A model generated the notes under the pieces. That model was not told the DNA's origin, did not search any database, and saw only the letters and a list, made by a program, of their open reading frames with translations. 64,000 bases of DNA from an uncultured Thermoplasmatales archaeon (GTDB lineage Archaea; Thermoplasmatota; E2; DHVEG-1). Position numbers and translations under genes: made by a program. The stretch is from assembly GCA_964467345.1 (NCBI GenBank), contig CAYXPY010000004.1:17358-81357 (forward strand). Reading direction: 5' to 3'. Shown here in pieces: positions 616 to 60,391 of this stretch. Numbering within the stretch: position 1 is the stretch's first letter; each line of letters starts with the position of its first letter.

Positions 616-628
616 AAAAGGAAAAACT

Positions 629-877: not shown

Positions 878-882
878 ATAGA

Positions 883-2142: not shown

Positions 2143-2145
2143 ACG

Positions 2146-2622: not shown

Positions 2623-2634
2623 ACGGAAGATAAA

Positions 2635-6633: not shown

Positions 6634-6745
6634 CTTTTTTCGTCTAAGGAGATAACTTTCTGATAATCAGATGACCCCGTGGAGGGTGAATGGATATTCC
6701 AATTTAAGTTTTTTGATTTCCTAAAATAACTCCTTTTAAGGTTGG

Positions 6746-16175: not shown

Positions 16176-16181
16176 GAGAAA

Positions 16182-16631
16182 ATGAATGAAGAAAAAAAGG
16201 ACCATACGAAGGAAACCTTTGAACCAAAGATCGTCGGGTTCCTCTGCAACTGGTGTAGTTACGCAGGCGCTGACCTTGCAGGCACCAGCCGTATTCAATA
16301 CCCGCCGAACGTACGAATCATCCGAGTCATGTGCTCAGGGTCTGTTGATTCTATGTATATCCTCCGAGCGTTGCTAGAAGGGGCTGATGGTGTGTTTGTC
16401 GGGGGATGCCACCCGGGTGATTGTCATTACATCGATGGGAACTACAAAGCGCGACGACGCATGGTCCTCCTTCAAAATATCCTTGATACCCTGGGTCTTG
16501 AGAAGGAGCGAGTCTGGTTACGATGGATCTCTGCTTCAGAGGGGCAGAAGTTCGCTGATACGATGAAAGAGATGACTGAGGCGATCCGAAAACTAGGCCC
16601 CAATCCAATCGCAAAACACTGGAATCTGTAA
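16182..16631 (+). CDS. mvhD: MvhD-like 2Fe-2S electron-transfer subunit
   Basis: '[18 protein letters not shown]', 'MCSGSVD' and '[10 protein letters not shown]' are present. The product is 149 aa. Confidence 0.85.
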
Positions 16632-16647
16632 TGGAGGATGAAGAAAC

Positions 16648-17769: not shown

Positions 17770-17770
17770 C

Positions 17771-18439: not shown

Positions 18440-18445
18440 GTCACT

Positions 18446-21400
18446 ATGACGAAAAAAAAGGAAGGTATCGGAGCAGTCGCTGTAATCGGTGGTGGCATCG
18501 CCGGTGTTCAGGCTGCTCTTGACCTCGCGGACATGGGATACAAAGTCTATGTCCTTGAGAAATCACCGACCATCGGTGGCGTGATGGCTCAGCTTGACAA
18601 GACGTTCCCAACAAATGATTGTTCCATGTGCATCCTGTCCCCAAAGCTTGTGGACTGCGCACGTCATCAGAATATAGAGATTCTTACGAATGCATACGTC
18701 GAGGGTGTCGAGGGGACCGCAGGAAATTTTACCGTCAAGGTTCTGAAAAAACCCAGATACATCGACATAGAGAAATGCACCTCGTGTGGGAGCTGTGAGG
18801 ACGTCTGCCCAGTTTCCCTTCCAAATGCATTTGAATACGGGTTGGTGAAACGCAAGGCAATCTACAAACCGTTTCCACAGGCAATCCCCAATGCCTATGT
18901 CATCGACAAGGAAGGCGACGGGAAGCATCGCGGCTGTGTCGATTGTATGCGCTGTGTCAAAGAATGTAAGTCTGGTGCAATTAACCATGACCAAAAACCA
19001 GAGCACGTGCGCTTTCAGGTCGGTGCGGTCATCATCGCTGCAGGTTCACCTCCCTTTGACCCGGTGATAAAACCGGAGTTCGGGTACAAGAAATTTAAAA
19101 ATGTGCTTACTAGCGTTGAGTTCGAACGAGTCCTGTCTGCCTCCGGACCCACACAGGGCAAGATCCTCCGACCAAGTGACCAGAAACACCCGATACGCGT
19201 CGCCTGGGTTCATTGTGTCGGATCCCGTGATGCATCAGTCGGTCATGAATACTGCTCCGCGATGTGCTGTATGTACACCGCAAAGGAAGCAATCATCGCC
19301 AAAGAGCATGCATATGATATCGAGCCGACCGTGTTCTATATAGATATCCGTTCCTATGGCAAGGATTTTGACAAATACATAGAGCGGGCGAAAAAAGACC
19401 ATGGACTCCGCTACGTCCGATCCAGGATCTCAGAGATAACTGAGGATCCAAAAACAAAAGACTTAATCATAAAATATGAGGATGATGCAGGGAACTTCAA
19501 AGAGGAGACATACAACCTTGTGGTCCTATCAGTAGGATTATGTGGTGCTGGTGAACGTCGTAACGAGCTACTGGACATCCTTGGTTTTGATGCTAATGAA
19601 TTTTTGTTTGTCCGAACAAGCCCCGAGGATCCTGTCGTAATCAAACCAGGGATTTTCGTGGCCGGTTCTTTCCTGGAGCCACAGGCAATCCCGGAGTCAG
19701 TGATGCAAGCTTCTGCTGCGGCTGCCAATGCAGCAGCTTTGCTTAAGGACTCACGAGGGACACTTGTTAAAGAAAAGGTGTACCCCGTGGAAAAGAACGT
19801 ATCAGCCGAGAAACCCAGAATAGGCGTATTCCTTTGTAACTGCGGCATTAACATAGGTGGGTACGTCGACGTAACCGCGGTCGCTGAGTATGTGAAATCA
19901 TTACCCGATGTCGCATTCGTCGAGACGAACGTCTACACCTGCTCAGAAGATACACAGAAGAAAATCGTTGACGCGATACAGAAACATGATCTGAACCGCA
20001 TCTTGGTTGCCGCCTGCACTCCCCGGACACATGAACCTTTGTTTCAGAAAAGTCTCCGGGACGCGGGTCTGAACCCCTATTTACTTGAGATGACGAACAT
20101 CCGGGAGCAATGCTCATGGGTTCATATGGATGAACCCGCCAAAGCTACCGAGAAGGCAAAACAACTGATCGCGATGACCGTTGCCAAGACCCGGTTTTTA
20201 CAGCCCATTCAGGAAGCAGAGATCCCAGTGATCCAAAAAGCACTTGTGATCGGCGGGGGTATCGCCGGGATGACTGCAGCCTTATCTCTTGCGGAGCAGG
20301 GATATGAGACGGTCCTAGTGGAAAAAGAACCAAGACTGGGTGGGTACCTCCATAAGGTGTACTACACCGTTGATGGTATGGACATCCCACGACTGCTCAA
20401 AGACACGACCGGGAAGGTCATGAGCCATCCGCTCATCAAGGTGCATCTCAGCTCACAGGTCAAATCGTTAAAAGGCTATGTCGGGAGTTATGACTCAACC
20501 ATCCAGACCCCGACAGACGAGGTATCGTTTTCCCATGGCGTCATCATCGTTGCCCTTGGTGCTGATGAATACAAACCACACACCTATCATTATAACAAGG
20601 ACCCGCGGGTATTAACCCAGTCAGAGCTAGAAAAAGACCTCAGTGTCCTAAAAAAAGAGGACATCCGGGATGGCGAGACGTTCGTCATGATCCAGTGCGT
20701 GGAGTGTCGTGATGAGAAACGACCATACTGCAGTAGAATCTGCTGTATGCAGGCAGTGAAAAACGCACTGAAAATCAAGGAGTTAAATCCACGTGCCGAG
20801 GTATTTGTCTTATACCGGGATCTGATGACCTACGGTTTTAAAGAAAAGTTTTACAAGGATGCCCGTGAGAAGGGTGTCATGTTTCTCCAGTACGACCCGG
20901 AGAAGAAACCAGAGCTTGAGGCAAAGAACGGTCTTGTGGTAAAGGTCCATGAACCGATGCTTGGAGAGCTGTTGAAGATTCCTACAGACCATCTCATCCT
21001 TTCAACAGGGTTACAACCGAACCCTGATAACCCGGTTATCGGAAAACTATTGAAGGTCCCTGTAAACGATGATGGGTTCTTCCTTGAGGCCCATGTCAAG
21101 CTCCGTCCGGTTGATTTTTCAACCCGTGGGGTGTTTGTCGCCGGGAACTGCCATGTCCCTAAGTTTATCAGCGAGTCCATTTATCAGGCGCAGGCTGCTG
21201 CTGCGCGTGCCGCGACAATCCTGTGCAAACCAACGCTGAAAGCAGAGCCAAATGTCGCCTGTGTTGACGATGATCTCTGCAGTGGCTGTGGTATCTGTAT
21301 CTCTGTTTGTCCCTATAACGCCATCGAACGGGTCGAGGAAGAAATCGATGGTAAAAAAATGATTCATGCGAGGATAAATGAGGGGCTCTGCCAGGGATGC

Positions 21401-28508: not shown

Positions 28509-28582
28509 GGGCCTGTAGCTCAGCTAGGTAGAGCATCTGGCTTTTAACCAGGTGGCCAAGGGTTCGAATCCCTTCAGGCCCG
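28509..28582 (+). tRNA. tRNA-Lys (anticodon TTT)
   Basis: Folded by hand. The acceptor pairs gggcctg/caggccc, the D stem gctc/gagc, the anticodon stem tctgg/ccagg around loop cttttaa, and the T arm aaggg-ttcgaat-ccctt. The discriminator is g and no CCA is encoded. Confidence 0.85.
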
Positions 28583-28616
28583 CCTTTCCTCACAAGGAAC
28601 GTAGGAGGAATGTAAT

Positions 28617-47621: not shown

Positions 47622-47710
47622 CCCGCCTTAGCTCAGTCTGGCTGGAGCGGCCGGCTGTAGACTCTATGGCCGTTACCGGCAGGTCCCCGGTTCAAATCCG
47701 GGAGGCGGGA
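47622..47710 (+). tRNA. tRNA-Tyr (anticodon GTA) with a 14-nt intron after position 37
   Basis: Folded by hand. The acceptor pairs cccgcct/aggcggg, the D stem gctc/gagc, and the anticodon stem gccgg/ccggc. The loop is ctGTAg followed by the intron 'actctatggccgtt' and then a. The T arm is cccgg-ttcaaat-ccggg. Confidence 0.75.
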
Positions 47711-47776: not shown

Positions 47777-48820
47777 ATGACTCGAAAAAGAACTAAGGCA
47801 ATTCGTGTACCCCTCAGTCAAGCCGAACCGGTACGAAGACACCTACGGGAACGAAATCTACTCCGAGATGATGTCAAGATAGCAAAGGAAAAACCATATA
47901 TCTATTTTCCTATCAAAGATCCTATAGAGGACGTTCCACCTTATCAAATTACCACAAAATCATTTGAAATACGAATAAAGAGACCTCGGTCGTATAAGGA
48001 TCTTCTTCTGCTTCCAAAAAAACATCTGGAAAATCTTCCCACTTCGTACGATATTGTAGGAGGAATAGTCCTAATAAAACTACCAAAAACACTTCTCAAC
48101 TATCAAGATAAAATCGGAAAAGCCCTATTACAGGCACATACGAACATCCATACGGTCTGTGTCATCGATGCGGTAATTGGAGAGCTCCGCACACGCAATG
48201 TCTCCATTGTTGCTGGAAAAAAACAAACCCTGACCACGCATAAGGAATATGGGTTGACCTATGATGTGGACGTGGCAAAAGCATATTTTTCCCCGAGACT
48301 TGCATCAGAAAGAAAACGAATAGCTGGGCTTGTGCAGCCCGGTGAAATCATCGTAGATCTCTTCACCGGAGTAGCCCCGTTCGCTATCACGATAGCCCGG
48401 TATGCACAACCAAAGGTTGTCTATGCCATTGACAAAAACCCCGAGGCAATCCGTCTTGCAGAGAAGAATGTGAAACAGAACCATGTGCTGCAGACTGTTG
48501 AGATCATCCATGCCGATGCCACAGATGCTCCAAAACTTATCCCTGGAAAAGTAGACCGGATCATCATGAATCTACCTTTCTCCGCATTTGAGTTCTTTTC
48601 TGTTGCACTGTCCATCTCTGCGGAAACAAGCAAAATACATTATTACGACATCATCAGAGAAGAAAATATCGAAGCAAGGATCTCGGCATTGAAACAAATC
48701 GCTAAAGAACACGGTTATCGCATCATCGATGCATCAGTTCATAAAATCAAATCATACGCACCAAGAGAATTTTATATAGGAGTAGATATTACGGCTACGA
48801 AACACGCCGACGTAGCTTAG
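47777..48820 (+). CDS. trm5: Trm5/TYW2-family class-I tRNA methyltransferase (m1G37-type)
   Basis: 'VDLFTGVAPFAI' is a SAM-binding motif and 'DRIIMNLP' is the NLP catalytic motif. The product is 347 aa and its 3' end overlaps the tRNA-Thr 5' end by 15 nt. Confidence 0.7.
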   Translation: MTRKRTKAIRVPLSQAEPVRRHLRERNLLRDDVKIAKEKPYIYFPIKDPIEDVPPYQITTKSFEIRIKRPRSYKDLLLLPKKHLENLPTSYDIVGGIVLIKLPKTLLNYQDKIGKALLQAHTNIHTVCVIDAVIGELRTRNVSIVAGKKQTLTTHKEYGLTYDVDVAKAYFSPRLASERKRIAGLVQPGEIIVDLFTGVAPFAITIARYAQPKVVYAIDKNPEAIRLAEKNVKQNHVLQTVEIIHADATDAPKLIPGKVDRIIMNLPFSAFEFFSVALSISAETSKIHYYDIIREENIEARISALKQIAKEHGYRIIDASVHKIKSYAPREFYIGVDITATKHADVA

Positions 48821-48882
48821 CCCGGTTGAGCGGCTGACTTGTAATCAGCAGGTCGGGGGTCCAAATCCCTCCGTCGGCTCCA
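48806..48882 (+). tRNA. tRNA-Thr (anticodon TGT), CCA encoded
   Basis: The acceptor pairs gccgacg/cgtcggc. The D stem is gctt/gagc (with a GU pair). The anticodon stem gctga/tcagc closes loop cttgtaa. The T arm is ggggg-tccaaat-ccctc, the discriminator is t, and CCA follows. Confidence 0.85.
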
Positions 48883-49104
48883 TTTCCTATTTTTTCTCCT
48901 GTTGAACACGTTGAAAAACCCTATTTCAGAAATCGGCTTTTGACCCCTTAAACCCGTTTTAGCAGGATTATTCATCATTCGAATTAAACAACTATTAATC
49001 ATCTTTGGAAACCGTATCACTGCTTTCTCTTAATCCAAATTATAATGATATTCTTTTTATAGGAGAACATTGTTATAAAATGTTAATTAAGGGGCAGGAA
49101 ATAG

Positions 49105-49590
49105 ATGAAAAACACTCGTATACTACGAAAAGATCTGATTGTTGGTCTTCTTTGCCTTTTCATTTGTATGACTACTATTCCACTTATAATAGCACAATCA
49201 AATGATGATGTTACCATATGTATCACCGCTGGTTTTCTCTTTAATATGAATTATGATGAACCAAATAACAGAAGTATCGGAAGAGGAATAACCATATATG
49301 TTGTTAATAACTTAAGTGAACGAATCTGGATTTTCTATCAAGTTGATTACTCAACGCTGTCTGGTGAAACTCTTGAAACTTTAGGATTTGCTGGAGAATA
49401 TGGTTATGCACTACCACCAGACAATGATACTTTAATTGCTTTCTCAAATTTTGTTCAAATCCCCTGTCAGCTAACAGTATCGGTGCAAATCGGCTCTTAT
49501 AACACAGGTGCCATTAAGACAGTTTCAAGATCCGGGTATCAATTTCATCGATGGGTGTTTTTTCCAAAGGTGACGGAGCAGGTGAGATAA
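49105..49590 (+). CDS. hypothetical secreted protein (signal peptide), translationally coupled to the downstream beta-helix gene
   Basis: It is 161 aa with a hydrophobic N-terminus 'LIVGLLCLFICMTTIPLIIAQS'. Its stop lies 1 nt before the next ATG. Confidence 0.4.
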   Translation: MKNTRILRKDLIVGLLCLFICMTTIPLIIAQSNDDVTICITAGFLFNMNYDEPNNRSIGRGITIYVVNNLSERIWIFYQVDYSTLSGETLETLGFAGEYGYALPPDNDTLIAFSNFVQIPCQLTVSVQIGSYNTGAIKTVSRSGYQFHRWVFFPKVTEQVR

Positions 49591-49591
49591 A

Positions 49592-50971
49592 ATGAGATAT
49601 AACAGAGTAGAAAAAACATTGTTGATTGTATTGCTTCTTCTATTCAGTGGGGTTAGTGTGAGTCCTGCGCAGTCAACACAGATGAAAAACAGTGCACAAA
49701 ACCGGGAAGGTTTTCTGCTCTATGTTGGTGGTTCTGGCCCGGGTAATTATAGCAAGATTCAGGATGCGATTGATAATGCATCAGATGGTGACACCGTTTT
49801 TGTGTATGATGACTCATCACCCTATCATGAGAATATCGTAATTAGAAAATCAATTTACCTAATGGGGGAAGAAAGGCAAACAACAATAATTGATGGAAAA
49901 AAAAGTTGTAAGGTAATGACAGTGTTTGCTAACAATGTGACCATCACGGGATTTACGCTTCGTAATAGCGGAGTGTTGGTCATCGATTGTGCCATTGAAT
50001 GTCGTTCAAGTCATAACAAAATCTCAGGCAATATTATATCGAATAATTCCCAAGGTATCTGCTTCTACACCATCGGTTCATATGTTGCCAACAACAATAA
50101 CATCACTGGAAATATGATAACATCCAATAAGGGACCAGGCGTCTACCTATATCAATCTCAAAATAACATTATCTCTGGGAATACCTTTTCTTCGAATGAA
50201 GGTTTAATCCTTGATCAATCGTATGATAACACTATCTCAAATAATGAGTTTAGCAATGATGGCATCGTGTTAAACAGCTATCCGAACAATATTCTTCCAG
50301 ACAATTACGTCAACGGAAAACCCCTCATTTATATGGTGAGTGAATCAAATAAGATACTCGATACCGCAGGACAAATCATTCTCATTGATTGTTATAACAT
50401 TACCATTCGACAGCAAGACCTCTCAAACACCACCACGGGTCTGACTCTTCTTAGGACAAACAATTGTCATATCGAACGAAACAAGATGACGAATAACTGT
50501 AACTTTGGAATTAATCTTTTTGAATCAAATGAGAATAATATCTCATTGAATCGTATTGCAGATAATGATGCAGGGCTACAGGTTACCTCCTCAGAGAAAA
50601 ATACCATTATATGGAACATTATTCGTTTGAATCCATACTGGGGTATTGAACTTCGCGGGTCAAATAATAATGTCATCTCGACAAATATCATAGAAAAGAA
50701 CGGTGGGAGAAAGTTAGTAGAATATGGGTTGGGACTCTTCCTTGCGTCTTCATCGAATAACAGTATTATTCACAACAATTTCCTCAAAAATGCACGGGAT
50801 GCCTATTTCTATGAAGCATATTCAACTGAGTGGAATAGTAACTATTGGAGTAGACCAAGAATATTTCCAAAAATAATTCCTGGTGAAATAAAGGGAACTC
50901 TTTTTGATAGGCGCATTAACATCGATTGGCGTCCTTCTAAAACACCCTATGAGTTACCCGAGATGATTTGA
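49592..50971 (+). CDS. secreted right-handed parallel beta-helix (PbH1/NosD-like) repeat protein, paralog 1
   Basis: It has a signal peptide and the conserved 'LYVGGSGPGNYSKIQDAIDNASDGDTVFVYDDSSPYHENIVI' block. Many 'N-x-I-S-x-N' turns follow, and the C-terminus is 'NYWSRPRIFPK..DWRPSKTPYELP'. Confidence 0.65.
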   Translation: MRYNRVEKTLLIVLLLLFSGVSVSPAQSTQMKNSAQNREGFLLYVGGSGPGNYSKIQDAIDNASDGDTVFVYDDSSPYHENIVIRKSIYLMGEERQTTIIDGKKSCKVMTVFANNVTITGFTLRNSGVLVIDCAIECRSSHNKISGNIISNNSQGICFYTIGSYVANNNNITGNMITSNKGPGVYLYQSQNNIISGNTFSSNEGLILDQSYDNTISNNEFSNDGIVLNSYPNNILPDNYVNGKPLIYMVSESNKILDTAGQIILIDCYNITIRQQDLSNTTTGLTLLRTNNCHIERNKMTNNCNFGINLFESNENNISLNRIADNDAGLQVTSSEKNTIIWNIIRLNPYWGIELRGSNNNVISTNIIEKNGGRKLVEYGLGLFLASSSNNSIIHNNFLKNARDAYFYEAYSTEWNSNYWSRPRIFPKIIPGEIKGTLFDRRINIDWRPSKTPYELPEMI

Positions 50972-51213
50972 AACAAGAATAAAATCAGAACACACACGGA
51001 TTTTATTTATTACAATATTCCTAAATAATTTCAATATAAACTAATGTACTCAAAATAACTATTATCCCCAGAGATATATTTCGTTCCCCGACATATCAAA
51101 TAAAATACTATCTATATTCAAGGATTAACACAAAAGTTGAGGTAAATTTATCTATAAGAAAAATCATGTTATTTCGTAACAGGATTTTGGCGGTTTTTAC
51201 CTTTCTAAATACA

Positions 51214-51410
51214 ACCTTTCGTTGCAGTCCCTCCGTCGGCTCCATTTCCTATTTTTTCTCCTGTTAAACACCGTTAAAACCACGATATCAGAAATCGGCT
51301 TTTGACCCCTTTAATCATAAAATCGTGATTTACTATTTACACGAAAAATTTTGTTATAAATCGTGTTACAGCTTTCCTTCATGTGGAGGGGAACGAATTT
51401 GAACTCGTGT
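51214..51410 (+). repeat. att-like repeat copy A1 (hairpin 'aacctttcgtt' + tRNA-Thr 3'-end core 51229-51244 + ~165-nt conserved leader ending in T-arm-like motif at 51395)
   Basis: It aligns by eye to the copies at 48864, 52854, 54693, 55365 and 57416. The conserved block is 'tttcctattttttctcctgtt..cagaaatcggcttttgacccctttaatc..acgaaaaattttgtta'. Confidence 0.7.
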
Positions 51411-51477
51411 TTACCGGTTAAATTCTAAATAGGAGATAATAATTACTCATGTAAGAGCCTACAATTTCAGATGGTTT

Positions 51478-52629
51478 TCAGGTTATCCCTGGGAAGTCAT
51501 AGGGTTCTTGTGCAGGATGCCAATCAAATTGTATGAAGTCAGGAAAAACTTGATAAAAATTCTCTATTCCAAAGATTAGTTTCGGTAGAATCCGTGGTCT
51601 GCCCCAATAGTTCTGATCCCAAATGGTCTGTGAACTGTCTTCGTTGTTGAATCGTGCATGAACTTTATTGTTCATGAATGTATTCATAGAGATTTTTGAA
51701 AAATAGGAATCCTCAATGATGATGCCGCATCGATAATTGCTAATGATATTTTTTTCAATGCGAGTATCACGATTTCCGTCTGTGAGATGTATCCCTATCA
51801 CTTTCTGAATATTTTCAAAACTTGTCCCTGGAGGATTATCAATGACATTTGATATAATAGAATTATTTAATGTAAAACCTTCCATATAGATAGCCCTTGA
51901 ATTGTTAAAAAAATAATTATTCGATATGGTATTGTAACTTGATTGTATAATTCTCAATCCATCACGTTGAGAATTAATTGTATTGTTCGATATTCTGCTA
52001 TATGAAGCATGGTATAGAATAATACTTGAACCACTGCGTTCAACAGATTTTATTTGATTATCAGAAAAAGTACAATAGGACGTCCAATCCAGATTAATAT
52101 TCGAAGAATAATATGTATCAAAAGTATTTTGAGTAATGGTACAGAAATCACATTCATAAAATTCAATTAAAATGCTGATAGTTCCCTTGAATATATTATC
52201 AGAAACTGTCACATTTTGTATCGGTAGATAGTTGTTTGAGATAAGTGTACTGTAATTCCTTTCTGAAAATATTGTGAACCCTGAAATAGTTATATTATTG
52301 CTTTGGATGGAGATTTGGGTCTCATATTCTGAAGTCAAACCTTCTATAATCGTAGTGTTTTTTGATTCTCCAATGAGTCGGATGGCTGTTGGAATAACAA
52401 TTGCTTCAGTGTACAATCCGCTGTAGACAAATACAGTATCCTCATCATGAGAATCATTTATTGCATCCTGAATCCTTGTATAGTTACTTGGACCTGAACC
52501 ACCGACATAGAGCCAATTGCCTTTTGATGTTGGTAACGTTGGTTTTTCAATATCCTGTGCAATCACCGGAATGATACAGGTTGTAATGAAAAGAAGACTG
52601 ATTTCGACCGCCAAATATTTCCTTTTCAA
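51478..52629 (-). CDS. secreted parallel beta-helix repeat protein, paralog 2
   Basis: 'WLYVGGSGPSNYTRIQDAINDSHDEDTVFVYSGLY' is present, with a C-terminal 'NYWGRPRILPK..DWHPAQEPYDFP'. Confidence 0.65.
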   Translation of the reverse strand: MKRKYLAVEISLLFITTCIIPVIAQDIEKPTLPTSKGNWLYVGGSGPSNYTRIQDAINDSHDEDTVFVYSGLYTEAIVIPTAIRLIGESKNTTIIEGLTSEYETQISIQSNNITISGFTIFSERNYSTLISNNYLPIQNVTVSDNIFKGTISILIEFYECDFCTITQNTFDTYYSSNINLDWTSYCTFSDNQIKSVERSGSSIILYHASYSRISNNTINSQRDGLRIIQSSYNTISNNYFFNNSRAIYMEGFTLNNSIISNVIDNPPGTSFENIQKVIGIHLTDGNRDTRIEKNIISNYRCGIIIEDSYFSKISMNTFMNNKVHARFNNEDSSQTIWDQNYWGRPRILPKLIFGIENFYQVFPDFIQFDWHPAQEPYDFPGIT

Positions 52630-52699
52630 TTGATTCCTTCCTTATAGAATAACAATGAATCCCTCGTTATTTAAACCTTTGTGATAGGAAAAAAGGGCA

Positions 52700-53055
52700 G
52701 GGGAAAGGATCTGAACCCTTGGATTTCTTCGCATAAAAAACCATTATCCTAATATATTAAAACCGTATCAAAGTTTGATCGATAGAATATAAATATAACT
52801 TTTTCTGTATTTATAGCACGATTTTAGCTGGTTTTTTTACGGTAGTAAATATAACCTTTCGTTGCATTCCCTCCGTCGGCTCCTTTAATCATTTTTTCTC
52901 TTGTTAAACACAGTGAAAACGACGAAATCAGAAATCGGCTTTTGACCCTTTTAATCATAAAATCAATATCGATTATCTACACAAAAAATTTTGTTAGAAA
53001 CCGTATCACTGCATTCTTTCATGAACAGGGAAGGGATTTGAACCCTTGGGCACCT
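52700..53055 (+). repeat. complete composite element B2-A2-B3 (T-arm-like motif 52707-52718, ~160-nt conserved arm, core 52869-52883, ~165-nt leader, T-arm-like motif 53032-53044)
   Basis: Its left arm is about 85% identical to 58890-59066 and similar to 54545-54707. Its right arm is similar to the leaders after the other cores. Confidence 0.7.
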
Positions 53056-53338
53056 TAAGCAAGGATGTCATCGATTCGAACAAAAACTCAGGTTCTACAA
53101 CAAAGACGATAAATCATTCATTACCACTGAATCTTCGGATAATCTTCCTTGATATTTTTAGCAATCAAATCAAGATACACAACAGTAGTTGCTAAATCAT
53201 CGTGCCAGAGAATCATCTGTTGATTCCTGATTTTCAAAAGGCGGTAAAATCCTTATGATATATTTGTTTGGTCGAGAAACGAGGATACAATAGATGCCGT
53301 CCCAAACTTTAGTGTGGATGTGTATTTGGAGAGTGACA

Positions 53339-53977
53339 TTACTGATAAATGTGAGGACCACATGAAAAGCACGTGGTTATAGCTTCTGTTGTTGGGAAAA
53401 TAATAATATATATAATTTTGAGGATAGCGATTAAAATGTGAGCAAGGATGCAACCTGGAGACCATAGATTAATAGTTGACGTACATACATCGATTACTGA
53501 AGGTGGGCAAGATCTTGTTACATGGGTATTATCCTGTGTCTTACTATATTGTAGTGTTTTATAACAGTCGGGATTATTTTTTATTAGGGTTAATCCTTGT
53601 TTTATCTGCGATATTGTTTGTTTATTCGCTCCTTGTTGAGAAAATTTATTGAAAATCAGGTTAGCAAATGTCATTAGCTCATTATCTTGTAGTTGAACAA
53701 TATAGTCAACCATTAATTTACCTTGGTAAGTATCTGTTGAATATCGAGGAATTTGTAGAGATGTTATCCCCTGCCCTAGATAATTAACCGTTATGATACG
53801 TTCATTCTCTGGATTGATTTCCTTCTGTGTTCTGATATCAAACAATGGAGAGGGATTAATAGAACTGATTTTTTTTGATTGTACACTAATTACATTTATA
53901 AACGAGGTAAAAATCAGAATTGCAACAACTCCAATACTAACTACGATAATTCTCTTTTTTTTATTCATATATTCCAT
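53339..53977 (-). CDS. small secreted Cys-rich protein with hydrophobic C-terminal segment (family A)
   Basis: It is 212 aa with a signal peptide. 'SPLFDIRTQ' and 'WSPGCILAHILIAIL' match the paralog at 55643..56158. Confidence 0.35.
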   Translation of the reverse strand: MEYMNKKKRIIVVSIGVVAILIFTSFINVISVQSKKISSINPSPLFDIRTQKEINPENERIITVNYLGQGITSLQIPRYSTDTYQGKLMVDYIVQLQDNELMTFANLIFNKFSQQGANKQTISQIKQGLTLIKNNPDCYKTLQYSKTQDNTHVTRSCPPSVIDVCTSTINLWSPGCILAHILIAILKIIYIIIFPTTEAITTCFSCGPHIYQ

Positions 53978-54062
53978 TCCTCCATTCTAACAAAGAACCT
54001 CCACCAACTTATTTTCATGTTCTATTTTAAGGTCAGATAGTATTGTAGATAAATCAACATGT

Positions 54063-54482
54063 TTACCGATGAAGACGATCACGAGCTATCCGTGTGATAC
54101 TCATCGACTCCACAAAACCAGACTGTAACAAGGATTGTTTAATCTCATTCGCTGAACATGGACTTTTCGATAGATCAGCGATGATATTCCACCGGGCAGT
54201 CTTCCCACGTTGAGAACTTTTTGACTCGGTCATCACTAAATCGATTTTCATATCAGCTATTTTTTGTGCAATCTGAGCAAGACAACCCAGGGTATCACCG
54301 AATTCGATTTCCATTTTAACAATATCCTGTGGTTTACCGTAAATCGGGCTAATCGTTATGGTGTCTGTCTTCTGATCTAAACTCAGTAAGACCTCATCTC
54401 CTTCTTTCAGGTTGAGAGGTTCTCGGAATTCATTGGGGATTACTAATCGTCCCCGTGTGTCCAGTCGTACAATTGAGTTCAT
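54063..54482 (-). CDS. AbrB/MazE(SpoVT)-type DNA-binding domain fused to an ACT-like domain (putative regulator)
   Basis: 'MNSIVRLDTRGRLVIPNEFREPLNLKEGDEV' is a swapped-hairpin AbrB motif. The C-terminal ~70 aa are ACT-like ('IEFGDTLGCLAQIAQKIADMKIDL'). Confidence 0.5.
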   Translation of the reverse strand: MNSIVRLDTRGRLVIPNEFREPLNLKEGDEVLLSLDQKTDTITISPIYGKPQDIVKMEIEFGDTLGCLAQIAQKIADMKIDLVMTESKSSQRGKTARWNIIADLSKSPCSANEIKQSLLQSGFVESMSITRIARDRLHR

Positions 54483-54544
54483 TATTCACCTATGTGGGAA
54501 TATTGTGGGACGTAATTGGAGAGGCGGTATATAATTTTTGCTTT

Positions 54545-54880
54545 GAAGGGGAAGGGATTTGAAACCTTGGATTTCTTCGCTTAAAAAAAATCCTTCCACG
54601 ATATCAACGCTTGGCCGCTACGCTTATATAAAAATTATTATTTATAGTTTTTAAACACGATTTTAATTGGTTTTTTTACGTGAGTAAATGCAACCTTTCG
54701 TTGCAATCCCTCCGTCGGCTCCATTTACTATTTTTTCTCCTGTAAAAACATCATTTTTTATGAAAAATAGCAGAGGGCTTTTAACCCCTTTAATTCAACA
54801 ATCAAGATTGATTATCTATACAATAATTATTATTAGAAATCGTGTCACTGCTCCTCCACCCAATCCCTGTTTATTGAGGT
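54545..54880 (+). repeat. composite element B4-A3 (T-arm-like motif 54554-54565, core 54708-54723, leader)
   Basis: 'tttttacgtgagtaaatgcaacctttcgttgcaatccctccgtcggctcca' is identical to the copy at 59030-59077 up to the core. Confidence 0.7.
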
Positions 54881-55018
54881 TATTGTTTATAGAGGAGGAC
54901 AATATTAAAAAGCACTATAACGGGGGAAAGAAAATGAAAAGGAAATGGAATATGATAGTTTATGAATGTTTATCGATTGCAGGTTTCTTTCTTCTCATGC
55001 TTTTCTTGTGGTAGAACT

Positions 55019-55216
55019 TTACTTAGAGCGCCGAGCGAGCCATAAACCCAATATTATAAAAATAATGCCAAGACCACAGAGTAGAAGTGCAATTGGTAAC
55101 CCTCCACCGATAAGATAGCTATAAGGAGCATAATTATTATAGGGGGTCATAGCGATGATACCAAGCACAAGTCCTACCAATCCTATTATTATTGATAAAA
55201 TTGCGCCCTTTTTCAT
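55019..55216 (-). CDS. small membrane protein (two predicted TM helices)
   Basis: It is 65 aa with G/L/I-rich helices. This is a weak call. Confidence 0.3.
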   Translation of the reverse strand: MKKGAILSIIIGLVGLVLGIIAMTPYNNYAPYSYLIGGGLPIALLLCGLGIIFIILGLWLARRSK

Positions 55217-55364
55217 AATAGTAATAGTACCAAGTTTTAACTATTTAATCTATTCGATTTGATAAACTATTTCTGTGTCACTGCTTGTCCTCTCATAGTA
55301 TATAAAACTATCATTTTCTACGTTTTATGCATATTTTTAGCTGATTTTTACGTTAGCAAATGCA

Positions 55365-55560
55365 ACCTTTCGTTGAAATCCCTCCGTCGGCTCCATTTCC
55401 TATTTTTTCTCCTGTTAAACACACTGAAAACCACGATAACAGAAATCGGCTTTTGACCCCTTTAATCCAAAAATCAGGTTTACTATTTAAACGAAAAATT
55501 TTGTTAGAAACAGTATCAATGCTTCCCCCCCCCAACCCAGTTTATTAAGGATATTCTTTT
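55365..55560 (+). repeat. att-like repeat copy A4 (core 55380-55395 + leader; contains a C9 homopolymer at ~55526)
   Basis: The leader is nearly identical to the leader of copy A1 over about 120 nt. Confidence 0.7.
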
Positions 55561-55642
55561 ATAGAGGAACAATGATGTAAAATATGGATAAGGGGGAAAG
55601 TGTACGTATAAGAAACCTCCGATTGGAGTAAGTATCTGTACT

Positions 55643-56158
55643 GTGATTCTTCTTGTTATGGCTTCATTGAGTAATGTAGTTGGGTATCAATCGGTGAAAT
55701 CAACAGTCAATGATTCACCGTTATTTAAAACAAGGACGCAGAGAGCAACCAATCAACAACAGAGCAGTATAACTTCTCAGTATCTTGGAATGGGAAACAG
55801 AGTGGTTTTCAACTTCCCAATCCAAGGGAATAGGAATGAAATGGTCAATACGTTACTTGAGATAATTCATAGATTGGATAAGAAAACCTTGGAACGATTG
55901 ACTGAACTGTGTGTCCAGAAAATGACGAAGGACGGATTGTTTCATCAGATCATTTTTGTCTCAGGAAATACTTCGCAAACCGAGTCTCAGATTTTACCAA
56001 CCTGTTCACCTGTCACAGTCTGTGGTAACTGGGCTCCAGGATGTATTTTAAAGGCTATTCTAACTAGAATCGTTTATTTTCTTATAGAGATTTTTCAAAG
56101 ACCAACAGTGGCATGGCTTTGTTGGCATAGTGGTCAAGTTCCTTGTAACATACTCTAA
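55643..56158 (+). pseudogene. N-terminally truncated paralog of the small secreted Cys-rich protein (family A)
   Basis: It shares 'SPLFKTRTQ' and 'WAPGCILKAILTRI' with 53339..53977. It lacks an ATG and a signal peptide, and the frame opens right after a stop at 55607. Confidence 0.3.
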
Positions 56159-56186
56159 AATTGTGATGTAATAAAAGGAAGGAAAA

Positions 56187-57287
56187 ATGAACACAAACCT
56201 ATTGAAGAAATGGTTGACAATTGGAATCATTCTCTTGGTGGTTGGGACGACTGTCATTCCATCTATCGCACAGGATACAGAGAAACTATCTCAATCAATA
56301 TCAAGAGGTAACTGGCTCTATGTCGGTGGGAGTGGACCAGGGAACTACAGTAAAATTCAGGGTGCGATTGATAATGCGAGTGAGGGAGATACCATATTTG
56401 TTTATGATGATTTATCACCGTATTATGAGAATCTTTTGATAGAAAAATCCATAAAATTACAAGGAGAGAACAGAACAACAACAGTTCTAGTTGGCAGTGC
56501 AATTACAGAAAAAATTATCGTAAACATTTCTGCAGATAATGTCAGTTTTCGTAACTTTACCATTCAACCAATTTTAGGAAATCCTACGGGTATTACTGTC
56601 TATAAAAATTATACAAACCCTGATTGTTGGAAAACGGAAATTATTCAGAATGTATCTATTTCTGATACTATTATTAGAAACACCTCAATGGGAATCTTAG
56701 CTATTCGACTAAACAAAGGGATGATTAATGGGAATATTGTTGAAAATTGTAGTGGTGATGCTGGGATGTTATTCCTTGTTTCATCAGATAATATCATTAC
56801 AAATAATTTTGTTGCTCATTGTTCAGGTATTGGGATTTTAATTGATGGTTTATGGAGCATCTTTAATATCAATAATTATCGTCAACCTTGCCCAAAAAAT
56901 AATTTTCTTTCTCGGAATACGGTCATATCGAATCGATGGGGAATTGAAGTGAATAGCGGCCCGTTTCACACCATAATAAGTGAAAATAACATTTCGCATA
57001 ACCATGAATTAGGTATACAGATTGTCCATGCTTATAAGACTGAAATCACACGAAATAATTTTATGAACAATACTGAAAACGCTTATTTCTATAACATTCG
57101 GTTTCCTCAATTTGTGATATTGAAAAATTCATGGGAGAACAACTATTGGGATGAACCAAAGAAACTTCCTGTAACAATCCATGGGGTATATTATTCCCTT
57201 TTATCATTATTTATTTCATTACCTTCTATAGCATTTGATTGGCACCCTGCACAAGAACCCTATGACATTCTAAGAATAGCAAACTAA
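56187..57287 (+). CDS. secreted parallel beta-helix repeat protein, paralog 3
   Basis: 'NWLYVGGSGPGNYSKIQGAIDNASEGDTIFVYDDLSPYYENLLI' is present, with a C-terminal 'NYWDEPKKLP..FDWHPAQEPYDIL'. Confidence 0.65.
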   Translation: MNTNLLKKWLTIGIILLVVGTTVIPSIAQDTEKLSQSISRGNWLYVGGSGPGNYSKIQGAIDNASEGDTIFVYDDLSPYYENLLIEKSIKLQGENRTTTVLVGSAITEKIIVNISADNVSFRNFTIQPILGNPTGITVYKNYTNPDCWKTEIIQNVSISDTIIRNTSMGILAIRLNKGMINGNIVENCSGDAGMLFLVSSDNIITNNFVAHCSGIGILIDGLWSIFNINNYRQPCPKNNFLSRNTVISNRWGIEVNSGPFHTIISENNISHNHELGIQIVHAYKTEITRNNFMNNTENAYFYNIRFPQFVILKNSWENNYWDEPKKLPVTIHGVYYSLLSLFISLPSIAFDWHPAQEPYDILRIAN

Positions 57288-57415
57288 TCTTCCATATCCT
57301 CTTTTTCATTATTTGTATAAAAACCGAGTCAATGCTTTTTAGTCACACTTATATATAGATTTAAATTTTTGTATTTTAATTACGATTATACTTGTTTTTT
57401 ATGTTCCTAAATATA

Positions 57416-57600
57416 ACCTTTCGTTGTGTGCCCTCCGTCGGCTCCTTTAATCATTTTTTCTCCTGTTGAACTGCCTAAAAATCAGAAAATCATAAGAGGG
57501 CTTTTGACCCCTTTGACCGTAAAATCAAAATCGATCATCTACACAAAAAATTCTGTTAAAAATCGTGTCATTGCTTTCTTTCATATGCAGGAGAAGAGAT
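57416..57600 (+). repeat. att-like repeat copy A5 (core 57431-57445 + leader)
   Basis: Past the core the sequence reads 'ggctcctttaatcattttttctcctgtt...gggcttttgacccctttgacc', the same variant as copy A2. Confidence 0.65.
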
Positions 57601-57726
57601 GTGATTCTATAATTACCAGTTAAAATCTGAGTAAAGATTAATAATTACTCCTGTTAAACCCTTCTTTTTTCATTGATTTTTTTAGATATCATTTGGTAAT
57701 TTTAGACGTTCTTTTTCTTAACTCTT

Positions 57727-58806
57727 TCAGGGTATGTCATAGGGTTCTTGTGCTGGAAACCAATCAAATTGATACCATGGAATAGATCCTTGAAAAAGCG
57801 GAAATGGCCATAAATCTCTCCATTCTATTACTCCAGGGATTTTCCTTGGTGAAATCGATTGGTGGTCATCCCAGTAATTCCTATTCCAATTGTTTCGATA
57901 AATAATTCGGGGGAAATTACAATGAAAATAAGCACTTTTATTATTGTTTATGAAATTGTTAAAATGGATTTCATTTTTTCTACCTTCATAATTCGAAATG
58001 CCGCAGTAGCGACATCCATTAAATTCATTCCATTGGATCACATGTTTGTGTCCTGCGAGGCTGATGGCTGTTGAGCAGTTGAGGAAGGTATTGTAATCTA
58101 TCGTGTTTTCGTTGGTCGTTGAAAAAAGATGAATTCCCGTGCCCCCGTTCTGTATCGTATTATTAGTGATCGTATTGTAAGAGTTGAAGGTTTCAATTCC
58201 GATGATTGTATGGTCTATGATATTGTCTTTTATATGGCTATAACAATCACTTACCCATATCGCTCTCAGTACATCGCTAATCCTATTCTCTTTGATTGTG
58301 ATCCCTGTGTTGATTGGAGAGACTCCGGTTTGAACGACGCAAATTCCGTCTGCTATTATTTCTTCTGCAGTGAGAATATTTCTCTGAATCGTGACGTTAT
58401 TACAGTTGATTATTCTGATTAGGTAACTGATTTCCCCGCAATTTCGAATCGTAAAATTTGAGATGGTTACAGTGTCATGGAGTATTCGGATGGTATCACC
58501 GGTATTGCTTGCATCTATGATTGTATTTTGCGAGTTGTTACCTGCGAGGTGTATTGATGTGTTGATGATAAGATTTTCATAGTATGGTAAACTTTGGTCG
58601 TAGACAAAGATCGTATCACCGTTGCTCGCGTTATCGATCGCATCCTGAATGGTTGAATAGTTATTTGGTCCGCTTCCCCCAACATATAACCATTTATCTT
58701 TTAATAAAGGGTAGAATGTTTTCTCTGTATCTTCTGCAGTAGATGGAATGATGCTAATCCCAACAATCATGAAAACAATTCCAAATGCTAAACTTTTCTT
58801 TTTCAT
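57727..58806 (-). CDS. secreted parallel beta-helix repeat protein, paralog 4
   Basis: It starts at MKKKSLAFGIVF and contains 'KWLYVGGSGPNNYSTIQDAIDNASNGDTIFVYDQSLPYYENLII', with a C-terminal 'QFDWFPAQEPYDIP'. Confidence 0.65.
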   Translation of the reverse strand: MKKKSLAFGIVFMIVGISIIPSTAEDTEKTFYPLLKDKWLYVGGSGPNNYSTIQDAIDNASNGDTIFVYDQSLPYYENLIINTSIHLAGNNSQNTIIDASNTGDTIRILHDTVTISNFTIRNCGEISYLIRIINCNNVTIQRNILTAEEIIADGICVVQTGVSPINTGITIKENRISDVLRAIWVSDCYSHIKDNIIDHTIIGIETFNSYNTITNNTIQNGGTGIHLFSTTNENTIDYNTFLNCSTAISLAGHKHVIQWNEFNGCRYCGISNYEGRKNEIHFNNFINNNKSAYFHCNFPRIIYRNNWNRNYWDDHQSISPRKIPGVIEWRDLWPFPLFQGSIPWYQFDWFPAQEPYDIP

Positions 58807-58889
58807 CGATTTACCTCTTTGTGCTATGCTAATACATAGCACATAATACATATATAATATTTAAATCTTTTTCAAAATAAAAAGTATGC

Positions 58890-59077
58890 AGGTGAATGGA
58901 TTTGAGTTCTTGGATTTCGTCACATAAAAAAACCATTATCATAGTATGTTAAAACCGTGTCAAAGATTGACCGATACTATTATATAAAAAAATAACTTTT
59001 CCTGTATTTATAGCACGATTTTAGCTGGTTTTTTTTACGTGAGTAAATGCAACCTTTCGTTGCAATCCCTCCGTCGG
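58890..59077 (+). repeat. terminal element B5-A6 (T-arm-like motif 58898-58909, conserved arm, degenerate core 59067-59077)
   Basis: The core reads 'ccctccgtcgg' and then diverges ('tttccaacg'). This is the last copy before the PKD/PGF-CTERM gene. Confidence 0.6.
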
Positions 59078-59270
59078 TTTCCAACGTATTTCCCTAATTT
59101 AAGTTACCATAAAACCATGGATGGTTCATTTTAATCGAGTAGAGCCATTTCACAAAAAATCATTACGATTTCCATCAGTGGCGTTTTACAAAGAAGGATA
59201 ATTTTTGGATATGTTTTTAAAGAAAGAGCTCATACGATACATAACTTGAAATGAGCAGGAGTGGAGATAA

Positions 59271-60251
59271 ATGAGGAGAGTAAAAAAACTAATAGTATTG
59301 TATTTGTTAGTAATTATAAGCATTCTTCAAATAACATATTTTGTTGGAGCCACAACCACCGTTGTATTTCATCCTATCGATGATACGATGATAAAGAATG
59401 AATCCCCCTTTACGCCCTATGGAAACTTGTGGAATATCGCAGTGAGGAACGTCTATGGAGAAAGTAACAAAAATTTTTATGAAATTGATACATTGATAAA
59501 TTTTGATATATCCTCCATACCCTCAACAGCTACCGTATTATCAGCGTCTCTTAATTTATATTATTCTAATTGGTCTGGGTCAAATCCTGCGGGAAGGAAC
59601 CTTACGATCTATCTCATAACAAGTAGCTGGAGTGAACAATATGTGTATTGGAACACTCAACCATCGTATGCAACAACCCCTTCAAGCAGTTCTTTTGTGC
59701 CACAGTCAAAAGAACAATGGATGAGCTGGGATGTCACCGATGATGTCCAATACCTTGTCAAGGAGCGAGCCTACTACGGATGGAAAATTGCTGATGAAAC
59801 CAACTGGGAAAAGCCAAATGTTCCTCTGACGAATTTCTGGGCGAAAGAATATGGCAATTATATCCCTTATCTAGAAGTTGTATACACCTTTTCAGAAGTA
59901 ACTACAGGACCTGTTGCTGGATTTTCCCTCTCACCGCTCAACCCAACAACAAAGGATTCGATACAGTTCACCGACACCTCATATGACCCGGAGGAGACGA
60001 TCACCGAATGGTTCTGGATTTTTGGTGACGGCAACAGTGCGGCAACAAAAAACCCTACCCATACCTACACAACAAGCGGACAATATACAGTTACTCTTCA
60101 AGTCACTGATTCCAAAGGTTTAACAGATTCATTAACGACAGTTTTGGTGATAGCAGAAGCAAAATCCACACCAGGCTTTGAATTTCTCATCATCGCCTGT
60201 GCGATTACCGTTCTATTACTTATTAAACATCAAGGGAAAAAACATAACTAA
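59271..60251 (+). CDS. secreted protein with PKD domain and PGF-CTERM sorting signal
   Basis: It has a signal peptide, the PKD block 'FTDTSYDPEETITEWFWIFGDGNSAATKNPTHTYTTSGQYTVTLQVTDSKG' and the C-terminus 'TPGFEFLIIACAITVLLLIKHQGKKHN'. Confidence 0.6.
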   Translation: MRRVKKLIVLYLLVIISILQITYFVGATTTVVFHPIDDTMIKNESPFTPYGNLWNIAVRNVYGESNKNFYEIDTLINFDISSIPSTATVLSASLNLYYSNWSGSNPAGRNLTIYLITSSWSEQYVYWNTQPSYATTPSSSSFVPQSKEQWMSWDVTDDVQYLVKERAYYGWKIADETNWEKPNVPLTNFWAKEYGNYIPYLEVVYTFSEVTTGPVAGFSLSPLNPTTKDSIQFTDTSYDPEETITEWFWIFGDGNSAATKNPTHTYTTSGQYTVTLQVTDSKGLTDSLTTVLVIAEAKSTPGFEFLIIACAITVLLLIKHQGKKHN

Positions 60252-60391
60252 AAACAAATCATCAGTGTAACACTTTCCCGGTTATCAAAGAAAGGTAATT
60301 CCGGTTCTAAGAAAAAAATTACCGAAGGTTTCAACAATAGTTCGAGTGATTTTTTCCTGATTAAATTTGGTATAATCTATTTATTGTTACT

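Follow-up and report, generated by a model that had tools for sequence, protein, structure and literature searches.

The stretch of DNA analysed here, called the window below, comprises 64,000 nucleotides (nt) from an uncultured Thermoplasmatales archaeon (GCA_964467345.1, contig CAYXPY010000004.1, 17,358-81,357) and contains a tandem array of small gene cassettes behind a tRNA-Thr gene. The tRNA-Thr(TGT) gene lies on the plus strand at 48806-48882, where it was called by ARAGORN and Rfam, and its 3' end is repeated six times downstream, marking off six units of 2362, 1640, 1839, 672, 2051 and 1636 nt, in this order. Four occurrences of the 16-mer CCCTCCGTCGGCTCCA are exact, at 48867 (within tRNA-Thr), 51229, 54708 and 55380; those at 52869 and 57431 each differ at one position, and that at 59067 differs at three. 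Including one at 10861 that looks like noise, the window has eight matches, where chance would give 0.31. A first-pass annotation of this DNA had proposed that copies of the tRNA-Thr 3' end bound an array of six consecutive small units. This was borne out, in that an exact or near-exact core is found at all seven positions and the units measure 0.67-2.4 kb.

The repeats are part of a conserved module of ~300 nt (about -135 to +150 relative to the core). Upstream of the core is a P arm of ~110-135 nt, which ends in the invariant AACCTTTCGTTG plus 4 nt and is present at every copy except the tRNA. Downstream is a P' arm of ~135-150 nt, which runs from CCATTTCCTATTTTTTCTCCTGT through GGCTTTTGACCCC to AAATCGTGTCACTGC and is present at every copy except the last (59067). 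Half-modules thus stand at the ends of the array and full modules inside it, an arrangement that fits the logic of attachment (att) sites, with attL (tRNA-core-P'), attP-like (P-core-P') and attR (P-core-chromosome) junctions. The module had been described in the first-pass annotation as ~180 nt long and present at every repeat; it is indeed conserved, but it is longer than that and only half of it is found at the first and last copies.

All junctions are on the plus strand. At the attL junction, the tRNA and core are followed by the P' arm of cassette 1 (48880-49028, from repeat families and alignment), which gives the tRNA its CCA and a T-rich trailer and ends in ...GAAACCGTATCACTGCTTTCT. 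Five internal copies bear both arms and are attP-like: junction 1 at 51119-51377 (core 51229-51241), junction 2 at 52759-53017 (core 52869-52881), junction 3 at 54598-54856 (core 54708-54720), junction 4 at 55270-55527 (core 55380-55392) and junction 5 at 57321-57579 (core 57431-57443). The terminal junction, attR (58952-59079), consists of the P arm and the core CCCTCCGTCGGTT (59067-59079, 1 mismatch), and is orthologous to positions 6495-6674 of a relative, L016. Behind it follows the chromosomal B' arm (59080-60251, plus strand), made up of the promoter and gene (59271-60251) of a CBM96/PKD protein with a PGF-CTERM-like tail, the next gene past the array, as identified with Pfam and by comparison with a second relative, L018.

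The first-pass annotation had taken the repeat to be the last 16-19 nt of the tRNA. The match to the tRNA 3' end stands, but only 13 nt, CCCTCCGTCGGCT, are shared by all copies across the genomes; within tRNA-Thr they occupy 48867-48879, the last 13 nt ahead of CCA. The CCA itself is part of the inserted P' arm: the native gene encodes none, and at unoccupied sites in relatives it ends in GGCT followed by TC. Similarly, the P arm includes the bases 5' of the core, and P' includes the CCA, CCT or CAT found 3' of it. The tRNA-Thr gene sequence is identical in all relatives compared and is scored complete in the window, and a direct repeat of its 3' end stands at both ends of the insert, as is the mark of an integrative element that targets a tRNA.

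The cassettes carry mostly genes for secreted proteins. Cassette 1 encodes, on the plus strand (49105-50971), a 161-residue secreted protein (49105-49590) and a 459-residue NosD/beta-helix protein (49592-50971). Cassette 5 is similarly arranged (55643-57287, plus), with a 171-residue Cys-rich secreted protein (55643-56158) followed by a 366-residue NosD/beta-helix protein (56187-57287). Cassettes 2, 3 and 6 carry minus-strand genes only: a 383-residue NosD/beta-helix protein in cassette 2 (51478-52629); a 212-residue Cys-rich secreted protein (53339-53977) and a 139-residue MazE/AbrB protein with a weak ACT match (54063-54482) in the insert of cassette 3 (53023-54588); and a 374-residue beta-helix protein (57727-58851) in the insert of cassette 6 (57586-58931). 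Cassette 4 (54857-55269, sequence read directly) is degenerate and mixes strands, with a promoter-like leader and a 26-residue signal-peptide-like stub, MKRKWNMIVYECLSIAGFFLLMLFLW (about 54934-55014), on the plus strand and a 65-residue membrane protein (55019-55216) on the minus strand. In all, Pfam identified four NosD/Beta_helix proteins, in both orientations, and the single MazE/AbrB protein; the remaining small proteins match no Pfam family and look secreted or membrane-bound by eye. From TATA-like boxes upstream of their genes, the cassettes appear to have their own promoters. The paralogs are 28-45% identical in amino acids, compared with 70-90% for the non-coding arms.

The array also differs from its surroundings in composition, with a GC content of 32-37% against 43-50% in the flanks; across the genomes examined, cassettes have 29-38% and host flanks 40-45%. 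The earlier description of the array as AT-rich, and of its cargo as beta-helix proteins in both orientations, small secreted or membrane proteins and an AbrB-ACT regulator, therefore agrees with our results, the ACT match being weak. Low GC (36-39%) is also seen at 1-3000 of the window, which holds a ThiF-family gene, a gene for a 419-residue protein with a weak thioredoxin match, and HycI. The Cys-rich small secreted proteins form a family without a Pfam match that has an SPLFxxRTQ motif behind the signal peptide; members are encoded in the window at 53339-53977 (minus) and 55643-56158 (plus), in L015 (reverse-complemented) at 4348-4950 and in L005 at 6872-7447. Often the next gene downstream of a Cys-rich gene encodes a beta-helix protein, and such pairs suggest a functional unit of two genes.

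If the repeats are att sites, then relatives should include unoccupied ones. An exact-pattern scan for the P-arm/core junction matched one GTDB genome (the Thermoplasmatota metagenome-assembled genome JBAZLE010000007.1) and 12 metagenome contigs, and further syntenic contexts were gathered through homologs of the adjacent Trm5 gene. We designate these loci with the prefix L; L001 and L002 are Logan short-read contigs of the window's own organism. Upstream of the array, gene order is kept: RNA polymerase (RNAP) A'', L7Ae, NusA-KH, oxidoreductases, a Holliday-junction-endonuclease-like gene, a glycosyltransferase, an S-layer-like gene, DUF5817, Trm5 and tRNA-Thr. A second tRNA gene of 89 nt (47622-47710, plus; Rfam 51.7 bits, missed by ARAGORN) lies between the DUF5817 Zn-ribbon gene and Trm5 in the window; visual inspection suggests tRNA-Tyr(GTA), interrupted by an intron past the anticodon loop.

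Two relatives have unoccupied sites. In L019 (Trm5 71% identical), the tRNA ends in ...CCCTCCGTCGGCT and continues directly with TCTTTAATAAAAAA..GGATATGTTTTTAAAGAATAAATTGTTAT, then a Zn-ribbon/membrane-protein gene, and this same B' also stands behind the terminal P-arm/core copies of L007, L014 and L015. In L018 (Trm5 78%), the tRNA directly joins the promoter and gene of the CBM96/PKD protein, the empty site that the first-pass annotation had suggested looking for; homology between the window and L018 ends at 48879 and restarts at 59192 (59192-60182). In both relatives, then, the sequence past the empty site is the sequence past the distal repeat, as expected of attB. L021 (Trm5 69%) is without a module and was counted as a third apparently unoccupied site. 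In a census of junctions over 20 loci, we found tRNA-core-B' (apparently unoccupied) three times, tRNA-core-P' nine times, P-core-P' 19 times, plus four with a variant left arm, and P-core-B' eight times. All four junction classes of site-specific integration at a tRNA are thus present across relatives, in line with the footprint that the first-pass annotation had recognized.

Occupied sites differ in content from one relative to the next. Relatives hold 0 to 6 cassettes, one to six where the site is occupied, with cargo unrelated to the window's; an array of identical order in all relatives, named in the first-pass annotation as a sign against integration, is not what we see. The cargo of L016 is one 3.5-kb unit with an amine oxidase, a flavodoxin and a radical-SAM enzyme. 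L020 has a 7.8-kb cassette between Thr cores (11948-19749) that encodes KdpD, KdpB, a KdpC/KdpA fusion call, KdpF and an Usp/DUF4118 protein; its GC content of 44% is host-like, unlike that of the other cassettes, which suggests that host operons can be captured. Other relatives carry Laminin_G/DUF2341, PKD, CBM96/PKD and beta-helix proteins and membrane proteins of no assigned function. One cassette, Z, which encodes a 206-residue secreted protein, is 84% identical between L013 and L015. It is the last cassette in L013, with a P arm before and B' after it, and the first in L015, where it adjoins the tRNA, and in both the homology starts exactly at the core. L016 is the closest sampled relative of the window, with flanks 89% identical. 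What they have in common is limited to the frame: at the left, the tRNA, the core and the proximal P'; at the right, a second tRNA-like repeat (X(b), described below), a P arm with its core, B' and the PKD gene. The interiors of their arrays are wholly different. The differing interiors and the relocated cassette Z indicate that array content turns over faster than the hosts diverge, and a site that is empty or otherwise filled in related species is a site-specific hotspot of gene capture.

In most relatives, a conserved Zn-ribbon/transmembrane gene (~280 codons) stands behind the array or, where that is lacking, behind the empty site; the window does not have it. The regions compared were 59080-60391 of the window, 11104-12066 of L019, 15334-17680 of L027 and 10400-11248 of L015 (reverse-complemented): L027 has both the CBM96/PKD and the Zn-ribbon genes, L019 the Zn-ribbon gene only and the window the CBM96/PKD gene only.

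The arms are conserved well beyond what neutral sequence would retain. Between genomes whose Trm5 four-fold sites are 0.33-0.52 identical (most pairs being saturated), the best-matching P' arms are 0.85-0.90 identical and the P arms 0.76-0.88. Moreover, the cores of internal junctions match CCCTCCGTCGGCT exactly in 17 of 19 cases, though they lie outside any tRNA there. These observations indicate that the arms are strongly constrained, or have recently spread between species, or both. Conservation peaks from -32 to +40 around the core, at +66 to +80 (GGGCTTTTGACCCC) and at +130 to +145 (AAATCGTGTCACTGC). A fourth peak is a direct copy of the motif of the third, at -107, with an inverted partial copy, ACACGATTT, at -52. 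Written as AAAYCGTRTCA, it stands at -107 and +140 of the module and has 13 matches in the window against 5.9 expected, nine of which sit in the array, on the plus strand and at fixed offsets, making it a candidate arm-type protein-binding site. An alternative left arm (ACTCTGG.....GT...) replaces the AACCTTTCGTTG arm before some cores, at 7480-7520 of L013, 3300-3330 and 10250-10290 of L015 (both contigs reverse-complemented), and 12516-12544 and 13639-13667 of L027. This arm may derive by decay from a longer 3' half of tRNA-Thr, and would then point to a second element family at the same site.

We considered other functions for the module. Rfam at E<=1 returned only two tRNAs and one chance match to a long non-coding RNA. 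RNAalifold on 14 module copies gave one 4-bp stem (CAAC/GTTG) with 0 compensatory pairs, and as single-stranded DNA the module folds with z-scores of ~0 relative to shuffles in four of the five plus-strand copies folded. An RNA gene is ruled out by these results, which also bear on the hairpin that had been described upstream of the core: what persists of it is the invariant 12-mer AACCTTTCGTTG, with only the 4-bp stem and no covariation. Conservation in the arms shows no 3-nt periodicity, so they are not coding. This, and short open reading frames (ORFs) across the module that are not conserved between copies, also led us to reject a remnant of a split integrase gene, as left by Sulfolobus spindle-shaped virus (SSV)-type elements. 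Nor are the arms simply promoters, since three of the six cassettes in the window have a minus-strand gene whose 3' end adjoins the P' arm.

Within some cassettes we found a second repeated tRNA-like 3' end, X, on the minus strand. It reads about AAGGGTTCAAATCCCTTCCCCTGCA, also written as GCGAAGAAATCCAAGGGTTCAAATCCCTTCCCCTGCA. Minus-strand cargo is always bracketed by two direct copies of X: in window cassettes 2, 3 and 6, in all three cassettes of L013, in cassette 2 of L014, and in L016 and L027. The 'a' copy lies directly behind the P' arm, and its left arm often holds the palindrome TTACCGGTAA; the 'b' copy lies before the P arm and has the minus-strand lead-in TTTTTTTATGCGAAGAAATCC. In the window, all on the minus strand, the 'a' and 'b' copies are at 51384-51403 and 52696-52740 in cassette 2, where the 'b' copy (from repeat families) reads ...GCGAAGAAATCCAAGGGTTCAGATCCTTTCCCCTGC on the minus strand and lies upstream of the minus-strand gene, at 53023-53042 and 54544-54588 in cassette 3, and at 57586-57605 and 58887-58931 in cassette 6. 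Across loci, X occurs as 10 'b' junctions, about eight 'a' junctions, one unoccupied site, where P', X and bL are contiguous (L015, reverse-complemented, 3476), and two internal junctions between cargo blocks (L016, 5462; L009, reverse-complemented, 1632). X therefore has the four junction classes of the Thr core and behaves as a nested att site. On the simplest reading, one subfamily of Thr-type cassettes would bear a 37-40-nt remnant of another tRNA, and a second set of cassettes would use this remnant as a secondary att site. No source tRNA was found for X; the tRNA-Lys of the window (28509-28584) resembles X in the T-arm and differs in the acceptor part.

A search for the recombinase gave none. 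Pfam found no tyrosine or serine recombinase, transposase or Cas1 in 46 ORFs, which cover the large ORFs of the window and include hydrogenase/Hdr-type oxidoreductases, exosome, proteasome and RNA polymerase subunits, Trm5, and S-layer-like and C25-peptidase-like proteins; the first-pass annotation had likewise noted no recombinase in the window. None was listed in the precomputed gene tables of seven further arrays, and a direct Pfam scan of eight otherwise unannotated cargo ORFs of relatives gave none of the array's own, the remaining unannotated cargo ORFs being inspected by eye only. Across ~35 cassettes from ~12 species, of whose cargo part was profile-scanned, we thus found no integrase gene or fragment, and no element with an integrase of its own beside an att end. 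Mobility-gene remnants and adjacent helper elements were also not seen in ~12 arrays.

Several individual candidates were set aside. In L012 (reverse-complemented), an IS110-family Transposase_20 ORF lies at 1268-1609, 35 nt past a P' arm, and a similar C-terminal-only copy abuts the distal end of P'-arm-like sequence in L031 (2011-2349). All 15 clusters of the IS110 homologs are 85-196 residues long with the C-terminal domain only, and in L029 (9440-10396) and L030 (8289-9245) split DEDD and Transposase_20 ORFs lie in unrelated chromosomal contexts. IS110 insertion duplicates only ~2 nt. With short or split copies, unrelated contexts and a ~2-nt rather than a 13-nt duplication, we rejected this gene as the recombinase of the array. 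We take the L012 copy to be an ordinary insertion sequence, perhaps one that targets the module, for which IS1111-attC elements, which target integron sites, offer a parallel. The ~280-residue ORFs past the terminal junction were considered as small recombinases and rejected, as they are the Zn-ribbon/transmembrane host genes, present beside unoccupied sites too. Separately, L030 has at 13778-14071, between DUF5655 and AAA_14 genes, a 97-residue ORF similar to the C-terminal catalytic part of an Xer-like tyrosine recombinase (...HTLRHSFATHLL...LLGH...TQIYTHV), which is probably a fragment.

Judged by their junctions, these repeats are true att sites, at a locus that is a hotspot of integration. 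We think it likely, though well short of certain, that the six units are non-autonomous integrative cassettes that accreted through a recombinase acting in trans, the possibility that the first-pass annotation had offered as an alternative to an integron-like array. In this model, the 3' end of tRNA-Thr(TGT) would serve as the chromosomal attB for small cassettes without a recombinase gene, each with its P' arm at the left and its P arm at the right, and the attP of a circular cassette would read P-core-P'. Recombination inside the 13-nt CCCTCCGTCGGCT would then insert a cassette at the tRNA or at any existing junction, and since any existing junction could be used, cassettes would accrete in tandem. 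The same logic would apply at a second tier, where minus-strand cargo would be inserted at X, the 37-40-nt 3' tRNA fragment between P' and P. The att logic, the empty sites, the turnover of cassettes, the conserved arms and the lack of a recognizable recombinase are observed; from them we infer circular intermediates, an enzyme that acts in trans and perhaps activity to the present day. Tyrosine integrases typically use an identity segment of the 13-nt type, running from the 3' strand of the T-stem to the discriminator base, together with long arms that carry repeated motifs, and a tyrosine-type integrase, encoded by a helper element or at another place in the genome, would be the most likely enzyme. 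A more ambitious version, which we offer tentatively and consider possible rather than probable, is a dedicated two-tier capture platform in which one or two unlinked recombinases would insert, excise and shuffle cassettes at Thr-derived and nested att sites, exchanging secreted-protein genes and operons between species. It would be an archaeal functional counterpart of the integron that works on conserved double-stranded sites with arm-type motifs instead of folded attC sites.

Several observations weigh against mobile cassettes. With no recombinase identified anywhere, it is from an absence that we infer action in trans. No free or viral form came to light when IMG/VR was scanned for exact patterns of the P arm plus core, the P arm alone and the P' arm alone, and the 12 metagenome matches all look chromosomal, with no free circle or attP-bearing replicon among them. 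Species that were sampled repeatedly show the same core offsets (L023, L024 and L025; L016 and L017; L006 matches L013), and with no polymorphism seen within populations, events may be rare or ancient. Not all breakpoints between related cassettes are at the core; some lie within the P' arm, and the arrays are therefore shaped by homologous recombination between modules as well. The cargo is mostly of one gene class, secreted beta-helix proteins and their partners, which is also compatible with local duplication and divergence. Finally, all data are metagenome assemblies, in which 300-nt repeats at 70-90% identity could be mis-ordered; despite this risk, independent assemblies of the same species agree on core offsets. 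Exact-protein look-ups with the flank genes of the window gave only short Logan contigs, which break at the repeats, L001 ending ~72 nt past Trm5, at the tRNA core, and L002 beginning within the last P arm. The first-pass annotation had further reasoned that modules found away from a tRNA-Thr core would speak for an ordinary dispersed repeat. The 64-kb window has no extra copy, but L009, L005, L008 and L010 have modules without a tRNA-Thr in the stretch examined: L009 has none within 4.3 kb upstream of the module, and L005 has 11.8 kb of cargo ahead of a single module. Such contigs hold either very long cassettes or secondary sites.

The most serious rival is a fossil array, in which integrase-bearing plasmids or viruses integrated serially at tRNA-Thr, lost their integrase and replication genes and are now immobile, with differences between relatives due to deletion and to homologous recombination between modules. 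Tandem integration and integrase loss after integration are both documented in archaea (PMC8371274, PMC6563490), as is the accretion of cis-mobilizable elements (CIMEs) in bacteria (PMC5704250), and the visible degeneration of cassette 4, the mutated terminal cores of the window and of L014 and the lack of within-species polymorphism would all be accounted for. Yet repeated decay should not have spared full P' and P arms around units of 0.67-2 kb, relics would not be expected to keep arms far above neutral-site conservation or internal cores exact in 17 of 19 cases, and no integrase remnant was detected in the ~35 cassettes, part of whose cargo was profile-scanned, unlike in tycheposon islands; we regard this explanation as unlikely. 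A purely local expansion, in which a beta-helix gene and an intergenic promoter/terminator module were duplicated by unequal crossing-over and the core was just carried along, would explain why NosD/beta-helix paralogs are encoded in four of the six window cassettes, why two cassettes have homologous Cys-rich partners, and why module-free stretches (L005, L009) contain these gene families too. It appears largely refuted by the unoccupied sites in relatives, which have the exact B' found behind terminal copies, and by the unrelated cargo elsewhere, such as the Kdp operon and the radical SAM/flavodoxin unit. The P' arm adjoins a gene's 3' end in half of the window cassettes, leaving no fixed promoter, cargo is found in both orientations, and paralogs at 28-45% amino acid identity are joined to arms at 70-90%. 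Local expansion is thus very improbable.

Insertion of a transposon type, with the core as a target-site duplication (casposon- or Tn7-like) or by an RNA-guided IS110-family enzyme, has some precedent, since casposons insert in tandem at the 3' ends of tRNA or ef-2 genes (PMC6563490), and would fit the Transposase_20 ORF next to a P' arm in L012. However, on direct reading the starts of P' and the ends of P are not inverted copies and no terminal inverted repeats were seen; no Cas1, PolB or Tns genes were found; and the IS110 relatives are split or truncated, lie in unrelated contexts and belong to a family that duplicates ~2 nt, not 13. We give such mechanisms scarcely any weight. What the first-pass annotation had favoured, an integron-like array with tRNA-Thr in the role of attI and the module in that of attC, fared worst. 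A true integron or cluster of attC sites lacking integron-integrases (CALIN), with IntI acting on folded single-stranded attC, would be consistent with small cassettes without an adjacent integrase, as in CALINs, which make up most reported archaeal integrons (PMC9668308). But the module has no attC-like imperfect palindrome, its only stem having 4 bp and its fold energy being close to that of shuffles in four of five copies; it is the sequence of the modules that is conserved, whereas attC sites keep their structure; genes point both ways and appear to have their own promoters, where integron cassettes are mostly promoterless and co-oriented; and the insertion point is a tRNA 3' end rather than an attI beside intI. 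As the attC and IntI tests both fail, the array is not an integron, and we attach next to no probability to that explanation.

Non-autonomous cassettes moved in trans remain the reading that we favour, and their ingredients are familiar ones. No description of this layout was found in the literature searched, as the first-pass annotation had supposed for archaeal systems, but archaeal tandem re-use of tRNA att sites, CIME accretion and tycheposon islands are all known. Integrative mobile elements exploiting Xer (IMEX), such as the CTX/TLC arrays at dif in Vibrio, have no recombinase of their own and insert in tandem at one site via host Xer; they are alike in this recombinase-free tandem integration, the target here being a tRNA 3' end, not dif. 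Archaeal tyrosine-recombinase elements re-use att sites in tandem and occasionally lose their integrase later (PMC6563490, PMC8371274). As here, tRNA-integrated elements of archaea target a tRNA 3' end, are flanked by the core, build arrays at re-used att sites, have a foreign composition and leave empty sites in relatives. They measure 2.6-140 kb and normally carry an integrase, whereas the units here measure 0.67-7.8 kb, none of ~35 has a recognizable integrase, every unit retains both arms and there is a nested second att site. CIMEs keep attL and attR without integration genes and accrete at tRNA 3' ends in streptococci (PMC5704250). Like them, the units described here keep attL and attR at a tRNA 3' end, with arms and core flanking every unit, have no integration or transfer genes, accrete in tandem and would rely on the recombinase of another element. 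CIMEs are, however, decayed integrative and conjugative elements (ICEs) or integrative and mobilizable elements (IMEs), usually found singly beside a functional ICE, whereas here at least six mini-units stand together with no helper or decayed mobility genes seen, in an archaeal host and with arms apparently under strong constraint. Tycheposons of Prochlorococcus build tRNA-anchored islands with scattered partial tRNAs, in which integrase fragments are present (bioRxiv 10.1101/2020.12.28.424599). The specific tRNA anchor, the partial tRNAs between elements, newcomers pushing older elements inward and niche-adaptive cargo are all shared with the locus described here; tycheposons, however, carry an integrase and a replication module, and here neither was found and each small unit has a full arm pair. 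Integrons, which in archaea are mostly CALINs with classical attC sites (PMC9668308; see also PMC4889954), share a fixed capture site, small recombinase-free cassettes, a possibly unlinked enzyme and arrays that vary among relatives. Unlike them, the present array has no IntI, attI or folded attC, and its sites are conserved, double-stranded and tRNA-derived. It is integron-like in function, not by membership, and is distinct from known systems in its unit size, its full arm pairs without a recombinase, the lack of mobility-gene debris and its nested second att tier.

Such islands will be missed by integrase-based island finders, and as short-read assemblies break at the repeats, they will often contain such arrays in pieces or not at all. 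Outside a few cultured lineages, little is known of archaeal mobile elements, and integron-like capture in archaea has so far meant classical attC arrays. The locus described here represents a different route to gene capture, a fixed tRNA hotspot filled with many tiny recombinase-free cassettes, in at least a dozen uncultured Thermoplasmatota species. If the recombinase were found, its compact att sites, a 13-nt core with ~150-nt arms, would be of use for archaeal genetic tools. Its discovery would also establish a new class of non-autonomous integrative element in archaea, helper included, and would explain how repertoires of surface and secreted proteins, and operons such as Kdp, move between these archaea.

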